This document shows, piece after piece, positions 11,651 to 16,486 of a stretch of 33,629 bases of DNA (its first letter is position 1; every line of letters begins with the position of its first letter). This DNA is from Bacteroidota bacterium (GTDB lineage: Bacteria; Bacteroidota; Ignavibacteria; UBA10030; UBA6906). The stretch spans positions 1 to 33,629 of the forward strand of contig JBKJJX010000109.1 in NCBI GenBank assembly GCA_046597825.1. The letters are read 5' to 3'. Made by a program: the position numbers and the translations under genes. The notes under the pieces were generated by a model that ran no database searches, was not told the origin of the DNA, and worked only from the letters and a program-made list of their open reading frames with translations.

Positions 11651-11885
11651 GCTCGCTTCGTTCCTACCAAATTCCCATTCCTTACGCAGAATTTAAATGC
11701 AGCGTTACTGCTGCGCGTATTGCCTTTTGCGGATGGGTTCGGTATCATTCACCGCACCCTAAAGGAAAAATAAACGAACCTTGAGGTGCGTTATACCGAC
11801 CAATACGGCGGGATAGACGTACCTTTGGTTTCGTAGTTACGGTAGGTAATTGCCATTTGCACAGCGAGTTTTTCTTGAGAAGAGT

Positions 11886-12458
11886 ATGACAAACGAAATC
11901 ATTGAATTAAGGAAGAGCTGCTGGAACGAGGCAGTATATTGTTTTGGCACTTCTGGAATATTCGGAAAGAGGGCGACCCGATATCGTCGCCTATTGCGGT
12001 TGCTCAGTTTTTTGGGAGTTGCTGTACCGGCGATGCTTGGAGGAATTCTATTGGCCTTCGGAACCAACTTCGAGTACTTGAGCCTGACAATCTATGTTGC
12101 TTCGTTGCTAGGTCTTCTGCAACTCGTGCTTTCGCTATGGTCACTAGTCGCTAAGTGGGAAGATGCGTTCGCATATTCCTTAGAATCTCTTTCATCAAAT
12201 CGCAACCTCGCCTCTCTTTTTGAAGAACTTGGGAAGAATCTGCCGTCTGATGAACGAGAATTCAGAGTGAGATATGATTTGCTTCAATCGGAGAATCGAT
12301 TGCGAACCAAACAAGACGACCAACAAATGATAACAATTAAAGAAAACCGGTACGGTATGCGTTTAGCACTCCGCCAATATCAGCGCGCTTGTGCAGGCTG
12401 CAATCTAGTGCCGACATCAATCAAGCCCACAGACTGTGATGTTTGTGGTAACTTCTAA
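11886..12458 (+). CDS. Mobilome CxxCx(11)CxxC protein: two N-terminal TM helices (SLATT-like layout) plus C-terminal zinc ribbon
   Basis: 190 aa from ATG 11886 (the track starts at TTG 11850). Hydrophobic segments LLSFLGVAVPAMLGGILLAF and LTIYVASLLGLLQLVLSLWSLV. C-terminus CAGC-NLVPTSIKPTD(11)-CDVC-GNF matches the TIGR04402 description as I recall it. Confidence 0.8.
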   Translation: MTNEIIELRKSCWNEAVYCFGTSGIFGKRATRYRRLLRLLSFLGVAVPAMLGGILLAFGTNFEYLSLTIYVASLLGLLQLVLSLWSLVAKWEDAFAYSLESLSSNRNLASLFEELGKNLPSDEREFRVRYDLLQSENRLRTKQDDQQMITIKENRYGMRLALRQYQRACAGCNLVPTSIKPTDCDVCGNF

Positions 12459-12470
12459 AGGAGAAACAAC

Positions 12471-12668
12471 ATGACCACAAAAGGATTGCGCGTACTCAAG
12501 GGATATATGGAGCTTCCCTCTTCTGAGAGAGACGAAGTCAAGCAAGAAATCGAAAGATACGAGAGGTCTTTGCAGAAAAGTCTAATCACGGAAGAAGTCG
12601 AAAAACAATTAAGGAAGTCTGTGCTAGGACCTTTGGGAAGTGGGGTCTGTCCCTGCTGCGGCAGATAG
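12471..12668 (+). CDS. Small hypothetical protein (65 aa) with charged helix and C-terminal CPCCGR motif
   Basis: Strong SD (AAAGGAG) 7 nt before the ATG; starts 12 nt after the upstream stop. The sequence is a helical core followed by LGPLGSGVCPCCGR. Confidence 0.78.
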   Translation: MTTKGLRVLKGYMELPSSERDEVKQEIERYERSLQKSLITEEVEKQLRKSVLGPLGSGVCPCCGR

Positions 12669-12720
12669 TGAACAGGTTTTGAATGGCGGATAAACGTGGT
12701 AGCGCATGGCACAAACAGCA

Positions 12721-12857
12721 ACTAACAAATGCAAGCACGTCATTCGTTCTTTTGTTAAGGCTTTAGCTCATGCCGACGCTCGCTCAATCTAATGGAAGTC
12801 AATCAGCAACACGCACAAGTTATAGAAAAGCGTTGAGCGTGCCGTTGCATTAAGGGC
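12721..12857. other. Imperfect long hairpin resembling a degenerate integron attC site
   Basis: ACTAAC core, then AATGCAA-GCACG-TCA (12728-12742) pairs with TGA-g-CGTGC-cg-TTGCATT (12834-12851) with bulged bases. No intact GTTRRRY at the right end. Confidence 0.4.
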
Positions 12858-12914
12858 AACAACACTTTGAGTGTTGCTATCGCTCGGTTGGTCAATTCAG
12901 TAAATTGGGACCGG

Positions 12915-14498
12915 ATGAAGACAATTGATGACATAAAGGCGTTGAAGGATGAACTGCCTAGTGCCTTTGCCGACAGGCTCGGCGTCCACTATTCATCCCA
13001 AGCCTCTGAAATGCACAAGAAGGGGAAGGGTCAGTTCTTCACGCCAGTTGACATTGCACGATTTATGGCAAGCCTGAACAATTGCAGAAAAGCAAAGGTA
13101 AGAATCCTCGATCCTGGTTGCGGGACTTGTGTTCTTTCCTGTTCGTTGACTGAAGCACTCCTTAATAGTGACCCCAACCTTGCGGAGATAGAACTTGTTG
13201 CCTATGAAACGGATGAGAAACTGATTTCTCTGGCTCAAGAATCATTGTCCTACCTGAAGAGATGGCTTAGACATCGAGGTGTGAAGCTTGATTTCGTGCT
13301 TCTGGTTTCTGACTTTGTCCTCGACAATTCAGACACACTGGAAAACCAAGATCGGACAACTGTATACTTTGATCTTGTAATTTCTAACCCACCCTATTTC
13401 AAACTCCCAAAATCTGATGGGAGAGTGAAAGCTGCCAATTCTGTTGTGCATGGTCAGCCAAATATCTACTCTATCTTCCTTTACACGGCGGCCACCCTTC
13501 TTGAGCCGAATGGACAGTTGATCTCCATTACTCCTCGTAGCTTTGCATCCGGTTCCTATTTCAGGCTTTTCCGTGACAAGTTCTTCTCCCTAGTTGAGTT
13601 GGAGAATGTGCATCTCTTTGATTCACGAAAGGAAACATTTCAAAGAGATGATGTTCTACAAGAGAACGTCATCATTTCTGCACGACGAAAACAATCAAAC
13701 GGTGAACAGCCGAGAGTAACAGTGTCCTCGTCGCACGGACTCAAAGACTTGCAGCAAAGACAAACAAGGGAGTTCTACCTAAATGAGTTGCTTGATACCA
13801 AGTCTTACCAAAAGATTCTCCACTTACCAACCTCAGATGACGAGACTAGGGTCATCCGTCTCTTCAAGTCTTGGGAAGGGAGCCTGAACGCTTACAATAT
13901 TGAGATTTCTACCGGCCCAGTTGTTTCATTCAGAGCCAAGGGATTCATCCATTCTGATGATAGAGGTGGGCTTTCTCTCGCACCGCTTTACTGGCTGCAC
14001 AATACCTCCAAGATGAGACTCATTTGGCCGCTTAACAAAAGTGGCAAAGGAGAATACATTCAAGTATGTGATCAGTCTTTGTCATTGCTGATTCCCAACA
14101 AGAACTATGTCCTACTTCGCCGATTCAGTTCCAAGGATGATGCCAGCAGACTCATCGCCACGCCGTATTTTGCTGACACAGTTGACGCCGATGTGATTGG
14201 TGTCGAGAACCATTTGAACTATATCTACCGACCAAGTGGCCACCTTGATCGGAAGGAGATCTTGGGTCTTGCTGCTTTGCTTAATAGTACACTCTTCGAC
14301 ACCTATTTCCGAACATTCAACGGCAATATCAACGTTAGTGCGACTGAACTGCGAGAAATGCCCCTGCCTCCTCTTGATACGATCAACCAAATTGGTAGCA
14401 CAATCATCTTGAGAAACGATTTCTCTCAAACCGTTGTAGACGAAATTATCGAACAGTTCTTTGAACTAGAAAAGGATCTCACACCAGCATATGAGTAA
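12915..14498 (+). CDS. Type II N6-adenine DNA methyltransferase, BsuBI/PstI-like (gamma class, Eco57I-type domain)
   Basis: GQFFTP (motif X), ILDPGCGT (motif I), VISNPPY (motif IV), then ITPRSF.SG.YF..FR and C-terminal LLRRFSSK / ENHLNY / FRTFNGNINVSATELR as in M.PstI/M.BsuBI. Likely ATG 12915; the track starts at TTG 12867. Confidence 0.92.
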   Translation: MKTIDDIKALKDELPSAFADRLGVHYSSQASEMHKKGKGQFFTPVDIARFMASLNNCRKAKVRILDPGCGTCVLSCSLTEALLNSDPNLAEIELVAYETDEKLISLAQESLSYLKRWLRHRGVKLDFVLLVSDFVLDNSDTLENQDRTTVYFDLVISNPPYFKLPKSDGRVKAANSVVHGQPNIYSIFLYTAATLLEPNGQLISITPRSFASGSYFRLFRDKFFSLVELENVHLFDSRKETFQRDDVLQENVIISARRKQSNGEQPRVTVSSSHGLKDLQQRQTREFYLNELLDTKSYQKILHLPTSDDETRVIRLFKSWEGSLNAYNIEISTGPVVSFRAKGFIHSDDRGGLSLAPLYWLHNTSKMRLIWPLNKSGKGEYIQVCDQSLSLLIPNKNYVLLRRFSSKDDASRLIATPYFADTVDADVIGVENHLNYIYRPSGHLDRKEILGLAALLNSTLFDTYFRTFNGNINVSATELREMPLPPLDTINQIGSTIILRNDFSQTVVDEIIEQFFELEKDLTPAYE

Positions 14499-15426
14499 AC
14501 TCAAGGACGCTCAAACAATTCTTAAAGAGCTTGGTCTTCCTCAGGCTCAGCAAAATGTAATCTCCGCTCTTACACTTCTCGCCCTATGCGGAGTAAAGGA
14601 GACCGATTCTTGGAAGGATGCTCAACGGTCGAGCCTCAAAGTCACCAAAGGCATCATGGCCTTCATAGCAAAACAGTACAAACGCCCTTACGCACCCAAC
14701 ACGCGTGAGACTTTCAGGCGGCAGGTGTTGCACCAATTTGTGCAGGCAAGGCTTGCTGACTACAATCCCGACAATCCACATTTGCCAGTCAACAGCCCGA
14801 ACGCACACTATGCTATTTCCAAAGCTGCGCTTGAGGTTATCAAGATGTTCGGATCAAGCAAATGGGAATCAGCATTGGCAGGATTCAAAGCAGAGGTCGG
14901 TGAACTCAAGAAACGCTATGTAAAAGATCGAAACCTTACGCTCATTCCGCTGAAGCTTTCCAACGGGATAACCATTCGACTCTCAGCGGGCAAGCATAAT
15001 CAAGTTCAAGCTGCTGTTGTGAATCAGTTTGCATCTCGGTTCGCCAAAGGTTCGGTGCTTCTCTATCTTGGTGATACTGCCAATAAAGACCTGCACATGG
15101 ACTCCAAGATGTTGAAGAAGCTCGGCATTCCAATTAACCAACACAGCAAGTTGCCTGATGTTGTCATTTACGACCCTGAGAAGGGCTGGCTTTACCTCAT
15201 CGAAGCTGTAACATCCCACGGCCCCATTACTCCTAAACGTATTGTTGAACTCGAAGACCTCTTAAGGAATTGTATCGCAGGGAAAATTTACGTATCTGCA
15301 TTCCCTGATTTTGCCGAGTTCAAACGACATACTGCTGCCTTGGCTTGGGAAACCGAGGTCTGGATAATGGAACACCCAGACCATATGATCCACTTCAACG
15401 GCGACAAGTTCATCGGGCCGAGATAG
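14491..15426 (+). CDS. BsuBI/PstI family type II restriction endonuclease
   Basis: 311 aa. Motifs YAPNTRETFRRQVLHQF, LSAGKHN.VQ, YLGDT, HSKLPDVV...LIEAVTSHGP, AWETEVW..E.P.HMIHFNGDKF.GP. Overlaps the MTase by 8 nt (ATGAGTAA). Confidence 0.93.
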   Translation: MSKLKDAQTILKELGLPQAQQNVISALTLLALCGVKETDSWKDAQRSSLKVTKGIMAFIAKQYKRPYAPNTRETFRRQVLHQFVQARLADYNPDNPHLPVNSPNAHYAISKAALEVIKMFGSSKWESALAGFKAEVGELKKRYVKDRNLTLIPLKLSNGITIRLSAGKHNQVQAAVVNQFASRFAKGSVLLYLGDTANKDLHMDSKMLKKLGIPINQHSKLPDVVIYDPEKGWLYLIEAVTSHGPITPKRIVELEDLLRNCIAGKIYVSAFPDFAEFKRHTAALAWETEVWIMEHPDHMIHFNGDKFIGPR

Positions 15427-15494
15427 TCGCAGGCCCATGGTCAAAAAGTTACTGCGCTTAACAACCGCTTCAGCTTTCTCCCTTCAATCACCGT

Positions 15495-16157
15495 TCAATC
15501 ACCGTGTAGTACAGCACACCGAATTTTCGCTACCTCCACAACCCGTATCCCCTCCACAGGATTCTCAATCGCATTCACCATCGTCTTCAGCATCTGATCA
15601 ATCGTAACAAGTCCCAGCCGTTTCGCCTGCTCTCTTGTTGAGGGGATTCTCTCCAACAACCAATAGACCGGCACAAAGAAATACGGCCACCAATGTCCCG
15701 GGCCAAGCACGTACCACGGACGCAAGAACGTTGCGCTCATTCCGCTTTCACGAATCAAACTCTCCCCTTCAACCCTCACTGCCTGATACTCCACCATCAT
15801 GGATGAAGGCTGCGCGACACTCAGGTACACAAAGTGTTTAACGCCGGCTTGCTTCGCTGCAGGGACGGATTCCTGCACCGACACCAAATCTACTTTCTTG
15901 AACTGTTTTTTCTTCGCCGGACCCGGATGCGCGACGCCGACGAGTTGTACGAAAGTATCGGCGGGACTGATATGCGATGCGAATGTGGATGCATCGAGAG
16001 CATCACCCGGAATTGCCATGCAGCCTTTGGGGAGTTTAGATTCCAATCCCGGGCGGACGAGCGCCTGCACCGTGTGCCCGCGTTGCACCAGTTGTGGAAT
16101 CAAACAGCTGCCGATGTAGCCGGTGCCGCCGGTAATGAAAACGTTTCGTGATTGCAT
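15495..16157 (-). CDS. NAD(P)-binding SDR / NmrA / epimerase-family protein
   Basis: Rossmann motif VFITGGTGYIG right after ATG 16157; also GVKHFVYLSV and ATFLRPWYVLGPG. The track's extension to 16253 runs into a repeat element. Confidence 0.88.
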   Translation of the reverse strand: MQSRNVFITGGTGYIGSCLIPQLVQRGHTVQALVRPGLESKLPKGCMAIPGDALDASTFASHISPADTFVQLVGVAHPGPAKKKQFKKVDLVSVQESVPAAKQAGVKHFVYLSVAQPSSMMVEYQAVRVEGESLIRESGMSATFLRPWYVLGPGHWWPYFFVPVYWLLERIPSTREQAKRLGLVTIDQMLKTMVNAIENPVEGIRVVEVAKIRCAVLHGD

Positions 16158-16203: not shown

Positions 16204-16328
16204 ATAGAGCATGTGTGAAAATCCATCGTGTCATGCTGAACTTGTTTCAGCATCCATCGAATTGTGGTGGATTCGCCTCAATAGATTCCGAAACAAGTTT
16301 GGAATGACAATTTTCACACAGCCACTAT
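16204..16328. mobile_element. MITE-like element with a nested REP-like doublet
   Basis: Terminal inverted repeats ATAGAGCATGTGTGAAAAT / ATTTTCACACAGCCACTAT (16 of 19 complementary). They enclose GTCATGCTGAACTTGTTTCAGCATC ... GATTCCGAAACAAGTTTGGAATGAC (16230-16308). Confidence 0.62.
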
Positions 16329-16361
16329 TAGGTTGGGACACGGCAACGTTTCAAAACGAGG

Positions 16362-16486
16362 ATTAACACCTCGATTCATCGAGGTGCATGAAAACGGTAC
16401 ACACGTTCCCGGGCAGACTGTTTAAACAGTCTACACCAGGATTATTGAATTAGGGTTCTTCCACCCGACTCAAGTCGGGTGTTAAT
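16362..16486. repeat. Tripartite palindromic element (REP/PATE-like)
   Basis: ATTAA-CACCTCGAT-tc-ATCGAGGTG ... perfect 18-bp palindrome AGACTGTTTAAACAGTCT (16415-16432) ... CACCCGACT-ca-AGTCGGGTG-TTAAT. The ends ATTAACACC/GGTGTTAAT are inverted repeats. Confidence 0.75.

Follow-up and report, generated by a model that had tools for sequence, protein, structure and literature searches.

The stretch of DNA analysed here (the window), a contig of 33,629 nucleotides (nt) from a Bacteroidota bacterium (JBKJJX010000109.1), carries two small adjacent genes that make up a genuine and widespread module, hitherto undescribed. The module centres on a catalogued protein family and is best classed with the conflict systems that combine a membrane effector with a partner. 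Gene 1 encodes a protein of the family TIGR04402, to which no function is assigned; it is one half of a strictly conserved cassette, the second gene of which is unnamed, assigned to no catalogued family and without a structural relative in our searches. With confidence that is about evenly balanced, we read the pair as an autonomous mobile conflict cassette of the toxin/regulator type with a defence role, in which a membrane effector would be accompanied by a small cytosolic partner. This reading agrees with the strict pairing of the two genes, their tight spacing, the Shine-Dalgarno sequence ahead of gene 2, the lack of any intact gene 1 standing alone, the joint loss of both genes to insertion sequences (IS), and a mobile habitat rich in conflict genes.

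Layout and co-inheritance of the gene pair

Both genes lie on the forward strand. Gene 1 (11886-12458, ATG at 11886, TAA at 12456-12458), delimited by its profile match and its open reading frame (ORF), encodes 190 residues, and gene 2 (12471-12668, stop codon at 12666-12668) encodes 65 residues and belongs to an unnamed family of proteins of 60-77 residues. The 12-nt spacer on the same strand (12459-12470) holds an AGGAG at 12459-12463, 7 nt ahead of the gene 2 ATG. The layout given in a preliminary description of this DNA, a tight operon with a 12-nt gap and a strong Shine-Dalgarno sequence for gene 2, is correct in every detail that could be checked. Gene 1 scored 219.2 bits against the NCBIfam model TIGR04402, 'mobilome CxxCx(11)CxxC protein' (cut-off 70, E 4.6e-65), its residues 9-190 covering positions 1-180 of the 180 in the model, and a six-frame search of the genome agreed. 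The preliminary description had named this family, and correctly so. Homologues of gene 1 bear the precomputed label PF27874 (Mob_CxxC_CxxC, Pfam 38.1). Gene 1 is a full-length member of this family, the record of which covers gene 1 only and gives no function; the TIGRFAMs comment reportedly cites transposase, restriction-modification (R-M) and cas neighbours. Because gene 1 reaches such a score and the homologues of gene 2 keep their position in other loci, both are, on sequence grounds, genuine genes and not chance ORFs.

Through relatives of gene 1 we assembled 46 loci, namely the window, one genome contig, three viral contigs and 41 metagenome contigs, the metagenome search being made with a closer 10-sequence alignment. 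A complete partner ORF followed directly downstream on the same strand in 37 of them. These partners represent 33 distinct sequences, are 59-76 residues long and end in GP-x(3-7)-C-x-x-C-G/S-[KR]. Elsewhere the contig end falls inside the partner tail (L026, L033, L045), after the first residues of the partner (L035, L044) or inside gene 1 itself (L027), and in two loci with less than 250 nt downstream (L013, L016) a partner-like N-terminus runs to the contig end without a tail. In the last locus (L042:1430-2519), gene 1 is cut inside its zinc ribbon, IS630-type genes (HTH_32, DDE_3) come directly after it and the partner is gone. Among the 46 loci, no intact gene 1 was found without a partner wherever at least 270 nt of downstream sequence were available. 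The partner was also present in all six annotated plasmid loci, two from Escherichia coli (L074, L079) and one each from Flavobacterium (L075), Plesiomonas (L077), Shinella (L078) and Rhodococcus (L076). It is annotated merely as 'hypothetical protein' in such records, and in the Rhodococcus plasmid it is unannotated but readable.

The distance from the gene 1 stop to the partner start ranged from -4 to +45 nt, with a median of 12 (32 loci). Moreover, the pairwise identities of the two proteins correlated across 29 loci (Mantel r 0.70, with none of 2000 permutations as high), and the coefficient was 0.46 when only pairs under 60% identity were considered. Such a correlation points to inheritance as one unit, and not to physical contact. 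The earlier claim that these are paired genes is borne out by the 37 complete partners and by this correlated divergence, and two small, adjacent, co-oriented, tightly spaced and co-inherited genes have the layout of a type II toxin-antitoxin (TA) module. Losses were joint as well. In the one partial E. coli copy that was inspected, on plasmid NZ_AP017618.1 (L080:4001-5084), gene 2 is lost entirely and gene 1 lacks its 3' part owing to an IS1, and here as in L042 the IS event took the 3' end of gene 1 together with its partner. An E. coli variant (L079) has a gene 1 shortened to 175 residues and an intact gene 2. Judged from this comparison of loci, gene 2 is a conserved, obligate partner of gene 1.

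Predicted architecture of the two proteins

Two hydrophobic stretches of gene 1 (residues 36-61 and 64-90; 19-residue Kyte-Doolittle windows above 1.6) coincide with helices of its AlphaFold2 model, and on this basis two transmembrane (TM) helices are predicted at about residues 37-59 and 66-89, encoded together with a 6-residue loop by positions 11994-12152 of the forward strand. The segment ahead of them has a net charge of +4 and the loop is free of lysine and arginine, from which a cytoplasmic location is predicted for the two termini and for the zinc ribbon. The model, built with 19 homologues, is confident (predicted local distance difference test, pLDDT, 91.2; predicted TM-score 0.82) and has helices at residues 3-58, 65-89, 91-117, 123-145 and 151-164, followed by the ribbon. 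Charges and model together imply an N-in/C-in protein in which a helix on the cytoplasmic side leads into a 2-TM hairpin, followed by three more helices in the cytoplasm and a C4 zinc ribbon; the N-terminal helix, the two TM helices and the helical region proposed earlier agree with model and hydropathy alike. The putative ribbon, C169-x2-C172-x11-C184-x2-C187-G-N-F, is encoded at the very end of the gene (12390-12455, forward strand). In an alignment of 19 sequences C169, C172, C184, C187, G188 and F190 are invariant. The CxxC-x11-CxxC first reported is present at the C-terminus, and GNF follows it. The helix at residues 151-168 is basic (net +4). A Foldseek search for structural relatives of gene 1 returned nothing at E ≤ 1e-3, and the best match by VIA (Z 8.4) was to generic helical proteins; a profile search of the PDB gave no match, and no fused or longer forms of gene 1 were found, which is weak evidence. 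No catalytic or toxin domain was recognised in either protein in Pfam, NCBIfam and PADLOC scans.

The preliminary description had likened gene 1 to SLATT-type proteins. The architecture stands: the SLATT 2-TM effectors (SLATT_1-5, DUF4231, NF033634) have the same N-terminal helix, 2-TM hairpin and C-terminal helices, and they occur in the same conflict-system neighbourhoods. Homology, however, is only hinted at, the profile scores being below cut-off. Gene 1 scored 13.5 bits against NF033634 (SLATT; cut-off 41, E 0.053, residues 28-93), weak matches to DUF4231 were obtained for 5 of 19 homologues (best E 0.009) and to SLATT_4 for 1 of 19, and the gene 1 of the window matched no Pfam SLATT model at E ≤ 1. 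When gene 1 was compared by hhalign with seven DUF4231 proteins, 56 columns were aligned across the 2-TM hairpin, the proline of TM1 and the tryptophan that follows TM2 among them, at a probability of 3.3% (E 0.013). One Atlas cluster of PF27874 proteins has been automatically named 'SLATT domain-containing'. Gene 1 may thus be called SLATT-like by architecture, a likeness that does not prove homology. It differs from the SLATT effectors in its C-terminal zinc ribbon and in its constant small, cysteine-tailed partner. Nor does gene 1 have a constant partner of the nucleotide-signal or reverse transcriptase kind (SMODS, SLOG, RT), as would be expected of a SLATT system: no such gene was found in the window, and the neighbours in other loci vary. 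TIR-domain genes were present in the available sequence of 5 of 29 loci, but their arrangement was not constant. SLATT proteins are described as predicted pore-forming effectors (PMC7159879), and one of them as a required component of DRT10/UG17 (preprint 10.64898/2026.04.29.721553). In one viral contig, which has phage terminase, portal and holin genes as well, an AbiC-like gene and a SLATT_5 gene (L010:1739-3267; PADLOC RTasSLATT, E 2.1e-20) precede the pair by 1.4 kb; a genuine SLATT protein and a TIGR04402 protein are thus found in one prophage cargo region.

Gene 2 is predicted to be a three-helix bundle (residues 3-14, 17-32 and 36-50; pLDDT about 95 in a model built with 126 homologues) followed by a flexible tail (pLDDT about 60), and it ends in ...LGPLGSGVCPCCGR. 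The tail, L-G-P-x5-C-P-C-C-G-R, is encoded at 12624-12665 of the forward strand and was delimited from the conservation of 126 sequences, among which G53, P54, C60 and C63 are invariant and V8, G11, L15, C62 and G64 are at least 90% conserved. It is plausible that this tail forms a single CPxCG zinc knuckle, with two invariant cysteines only, and that the partner is a metal-binding regulator, as the preliminary description suggested; the coupling through Zn or thiol status that it added is purely conjectural. The sole likeness of the tail among PDB profiles was to the knuckle of a C2H2 finger, and it was weak (E 0.0014). Intermolecular zinc sites such as the Rad50 zinc hook and the CD4-Lck zinc clasp are built from CxxC motifs, a lone CxxC needing ligands from another chain. 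The partner shares with them the lone CxxC on a flexible segment; this is an analogy only, metal binding by the partner being hypothetical. Foldseek gave no structural relative of gene 2, and the best VIA match had a Z of 5.0. The first helices of the partner are rich in glutamate and aspartate.

The partner family is broad. When 1.84 billion cluster representatives (50% clustering) were searched with a profile of 32 partners, 800 matched at E ≤ 1e-3, 440 of them at E ≤ 1e-10, and all of the 150 best of the 800 were 60-95 residues long. Ten representatives that we looked up were unnamed or called 'hypothetical protein', the Atlas clusters of the partner have no Pfam family, and gene 2 matched no Pfam or NCBIfam family above noise. 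A word-indexed search had returned only the protein itself. Since the locus and profile searches found relatives, this blank reflects a limit of sensitivity, and we rejected orphan status for gene 2. We likewise dropped a pairing between Cys12 of gene 1 and the middle cysteine of the partner CPCC, as the two do not strictly covary across 34 loci (both present in 19, the partner cysteine alone in 8, that of gene 1 alone in 3 and neither in 4); Cys12 was invariant only in the first 19 sequences.

The preliminary description did not recognise the pair as a named system, and this still holds. Neither protein matched any family of PADLOC-DB v2.0.0 at E ≤ 1, and a literature search on TIGR04402 / PF27874 by family name, tail motif or E. 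coli accessions found nothing, although the supplementary tables of defence-discovery papers could list the family under another label. The nearest published design that we found is type II PANGU (preprint 10.64898/2026.04.06.716658). It is also a two-gene operon of a small soluble protein (Pag2A, nucleoid-associated) and a membrane effector (Pag2B), and it protects E. coli from phages. Pag2B, however, is described with a DMK domain and a C-terminal TM region, whereas gene 1 has an N-terminal hairpin and a zinc ribbon; and whereas the PANGU partner is nucleoid-associated, gene 2 matches no known family, nucleoid-associated or otherwise.

Distribution and mobile neighbourhood

Gene 1 is sporadic and mobile. 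TIGR04402 was above cut-off in 1 of 401 sampled genomes of the phylum, that one being the genome of the window. By tblastn, gene 1 was found in 173 plasmid records (148 from Escherichia, 16 from Salmonella and a few from actinobacteria, Flavobacterium, Plesiomonas and Shinella), of which 161 are typed as conjugative. The E. coli copy, at 99% identity or more, was present in 337 of 5426 complete genomes (about 6%), and 347 of its 350 places were on plasmids; 207 copies covered at least 80% of the query and 130 of the 337 covered less. Gene 1 also occurs on three viral contigs, and among PHROGs it had one weak match (E 1e-4) to a family of unknown function, gene 2 having none. The IncF plasmids of E. 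coli have sopAB on one side of the pair and, on the other, beyond an IS110-family element, genes annotated as antirestriction protein, DUF1380, DUF3560 and S-adenosylmethionine (SAM) methyltransferase. In Shinella it adjoins repABC and, on a small Flavobacterium plasmid, an integrase and replication genes. In these IncF plasmids a gene for a 120-residue hypothetical protein (L074:5529-5891) precedes gene 1 by 58 nt on the same strand.

In the window, the region 11651-15520 was unmatched in 20 genomes of the same family, save for a short repeat, and the flanking genes were matched there at 65-78% identity. As the flanking genes are scattered in these relatives, which do not hold them together, no clean insertion site could be defined by comparison with an empty site. 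The DNA had been called compositionally foreign. Its G+C content is indeed 0.45-0.47 over 11.5-15 kb against 0.49-0.54 in the flanks; the difference, however, is mild, and comparable dips occur elsewhere in the window.

For the neighbourhoods we called ORFs of at least 90 residues with a greedy script in the environmental loci. Thirty-two loci entered, 13 short or duplicate ones being left out; three near-duplicates were then removed, leaving 29, and 14 distal or short ORFs were dropped, so that 148 neighbour ORFs were scanned against Pfam and PADLOC. These neighbours differ from locus to locus. R-M genes of type ISP/IIG (L011), type III (L013) or type IIG together with PDC-S60 (L028) are one kind among many; others are ThsB-like TIR genes (L012 and L043, the latter also with a caspase), further TIR-domain genes (L040, L052), IetS with an integrase (L047), HerA with UvrD/GajB-like, WYL and SNase genes (L019), a NucC-like nuclease (L031), a PIN-type TA (L050), integrases (L015, L036), transposases (L008, L017, L042), and the AbiC and SLATT_5 genes of the viral contig L010. 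Metal-transport or regulator genes were not the setting of the pair in the Pfam scan. In L021 (3086-4926, near-identical in L020 and L022), which also has an Mrr-like R-M gene, RmrT (E 3.6e-46) and RmrA (E 6.8e-125) immediately precede the pair and share its strand; the reading frame of gene 1 begins at the RmrA stop. In L033 (254-1465), RmrA is again directly upstream on the same strand, and L048 has a CapP-like M78 peptidase 2.3 kb upstream, together with two resolvases. RosmerTA (RmrT and RmrA, the latter a helix-turn-helix (HTH) protein with an M78 peptidase) is a TA-type defence module, and regulators of the HTH-M78 type may govern the pair in certain lineages. The association is limited to 2 of the 29 loci, however; nothing like RmrA is encoded in the window, and the RmrT models gave no match to gene 1.

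We then compared these loci with a control of 16 loci anchored on the acyl-ACP desaturase (PF03405) in the same phylum, with 5-kb flanks and the same ORF caller (150 ORFs). Two criteria favoured the pair, both chosen after the data had been seen: a list of Pfam hallmarks (R-M, TIR, integrase/transposase/resolvase, TA, Abi/SLATT, M78 peptidase, caspase and similar) was represented in 21 of 29 pair loci against 3 of 16 control loci (p 0.0014), and strict PADLOC matches (E ≤ 1e-20 over at least about 70% of the profile) were found for 12 of 148 ORFs against 2 of 150 (p 0.006). The enrichment near defence genes expected in the preliminary description stands for these two counts, but not for matches to any PADLOC model or for the strict matches counted per locus, the figures for which are given below. 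The crude criterion fails to discriminate because PADLOC models also match OmpA/MotB proteins, DEAD-box helicases, cold-shock proteins and small methylases. Indeed, 12 of the 16 housekeeping neighbourhoods of the control (L084-L099) had matches at E ≤ 1e-5, OmpA/MotB proteins being taken for ZorB, DEAD-box RNA helicases for BrxH/DpdF, cold-shock proteins for CSD and small methylases for mad2. Single PADLOC HMM matches at this threshold are unusable as a defence-island score. The loci of the pair also average about half as many ORFs as the controls, a bias that works against them. Altogether, a habitat of mobile elements and defence islands has good qualitative and moderate quantitative support, which is not proof of a defence role.

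Possible roles of the pair and its restriction-modification neighbours

We propose that gene 1 is the effector and that it inserts into the inner membrane as a hairpin of helices whose two ends, like the zinc ribbon, face the cytoplasm. The product of gene 2, a three-helix protein of the cytosol, would be synthesised in concert with gene 1, its frame following closely on that of gene 1 or overlapping it, and it would bind the cytoplasmic part of gene 1, restraining or controlling it as an antitoxin or a sensor. An electrostatic interface is plausible, because the helix of gene 1 at residues 151-168 is basic and the first helices of the partner are acidic. The CPxCG knuckle of the partner may give half a metal site: on so flexible a tail, a single CxxC depends on another chain for its remaining ligands, and this chain could be a second copy of the partner or gene 1. 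Once released, gene 1 would disturb the membrane, as predicted for SLATT-like 2-TM effectors. As a result, infection could abort or an invader could be kept out and, where the pair is carried by a plasmid, cells that lose the element might be killed; the sequence is compatible with abortive infection, with plasmid addiction and with a combination of the two. A more specific version, which we consider improbable, is that a zinc or redox-sensitive thiolate site, formed jointly by the knuckle and the cytoplasmic domain of gene 1, acts as a latch that keeps a membrane-permeabilising 2-TM protein closed, and that loss of zinc, oxidation of thiols during phage takeover or failed resupply of the partner opens the latch. 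If true, this would be a metal- or redox-gated switch for abortive infection and addiction, of an undescribed kind and present on hundreds of E. coli IncF plasmids. More generally, if the pair defends against phages or stabilises plasmids, it would represent a new effector-plus-partner design among bacterial conflict systems and would give a function to genes now annotated 'mobilome CxxCx(11)CxxC protein' and 'hypothetical protein'. The module is readily accessible to standard laboratory assays, by which its function could be established quickly, as about 6% of complete E. coli genomes carry it on plasmids.

Several results weigh against a toxin/regulator cassette with a defence role. Counting any PADLOC match at E ≤ 1e-5, the pair was not distinguished from the control, either per locus (16/29 against 12/16, Fisher p 0.22) or per ORF (26/148 against 18/150, p 0.19), and the strict criterion counted per locus gave 9/29 against 2/16 (p 0.28). 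The post hoc choice of the two favourable criteria has to be set beside these figures; in addition, neither the ORFs within a locus nor the kin genomes of the control are independent, and the control rests on one anchor family in related genomes. No PADLOC SLATT model matched gene 1 at E ≤ 1, and no profile of the SLATT clan reached its curated cut-off, the hhalign probability being as low as stated above. A tblastn search of 50,697 GenBank phage records gave no match, and the literature searched held no report of toxicity or phage protection for the pair. The gene order, with the putative toxin first, is the less common one in type II TA pairs, and the position on IncF plasmids, between partition genes and the leading region, also fits a role in plasmid maintenance or establishment.

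Two alternatives concern the biology of plasmids. The pair could serve only the addiction of plasmids and other mobile elements, gene 1 being a membrane toxin and gene 2 an unstable antitoxin, with post-segregational killing and no anti-phage role. We consider this unlikely, while granting it some chance: the pair is found in 173 plasmid records, 161 of them conjugative, next to sopAB, repABC or integrase and replication genes, and gene 2 accompanied each intact gene 1 observed, IS truncations taking both. However, many copies lie in chromosomal islands and on prophage-like contigs beside R-M, TIR, RosmerTA and IetS genes, the copy of the window is on a 33.6-kb contig whose other genes look chromosomal, and addiction and defence are not exclusive for TA modules. 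Alternatively, conjugative plasmids might use the pair for establishment or against host defences, expressing it early after transfer from the leading-region side. The setting between sopB and the antirestriction, DUF1380, DUF3560 and SAM methyltransferase genes would suit such a function, which we nevertheless regard as very improbable, given that an IS110-family element separates the pair from the antirestriction-side genes and that most copies outside the enterobacteria lie elsewhere than on conjugative plasmids. For an anti-defence protein, a 2-TM membrane architecture would also be unusual. Finally, the pair might be cargo unrelated to conflict, for instance a membrane-bound metal or redox sensor with a small chaperone-like partner. 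The cysteine motifs of both proteins, together with the absence of a recognised catalytic or toxin domain and of a structural relative in our searches, would be compatible with this idea, but the sporadic (1 of 401 genomes of the phylum) and mobile distribution, neighbours other than metal-transport or regulator genes and the frequent decay through IS insertion make it improbable.

In the window, the pair stands directly upstream of a type II R-M system, as the preliminary description had noted. These two genes, which are probably outside the module, encode on the forward strand an N6-adenine DNA methyltransferase (12867-14498; Pfam Eco57I and N6_Mtase, PADLOC MTase_II PDLC03227 with E 2.7e-111) and, overlapping it by 8 nt, a restriction endonuclease of the BsuBI/PstI family (14491-15426; PF06616 E 1.8e-58, PF17728 E 4.7e-48, REase_II E 3.1e-107). 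The methyltransferase gene starts 199 nt after gene 2, on the same strand. It could be proposed on this ground that the pair and the PstI-type R-M genes form one four-gene system, the pair being a dedicated abortive-infection backup or regulator, and R-M genes are indeed near the pair in L011 (ISP/IIG), L013 (III), L028 (IIG), L021 (Mrr-like) and the Rhodococcus plasmid (L076). We hold this to be highly unlikely. No two of these loci share an R-M type, R-M genes are missing from the available sequence of 24 of the 29 other loci, and some adjacency is expected anyway, R-M genes being the commonest defence genes. Moreover, the spacer contains a repeat that recurs elsewhere in the genome and in related genera, which suggests separate histories of the pair and the R-M genes. 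Because the R-M types differ, most loci have none and the spacer holds this recurring repeat, the adjacency looks incidental. The role as an abortive-infection backup to R-M, put forward earlier, is not supported, since neighbours vary by locus and R-M is only one kind among many.

The spacer repeat (12714-12848, between gene 2 and the methylase gene) is a conserved sequence of about 50-135 nt. It is also found on another contig of the same genome (G000:C279:998-1044, 85% identity) and in several other genera of the family (65-80%), and it contains a 9-nt inverted repeat, TAACAAATG...CATTTGTTA. It gave no Rfam match and no tRNA, and its predicted fold is no better than that of shuffled sequences (z +0.65). 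A second short repeat, at 16228-16433 between the NAD-binding and histidine-kinase genes, matches three other contigs of the same genome (C186, C240, C367) at 77-97% identity, as well as some relatives.

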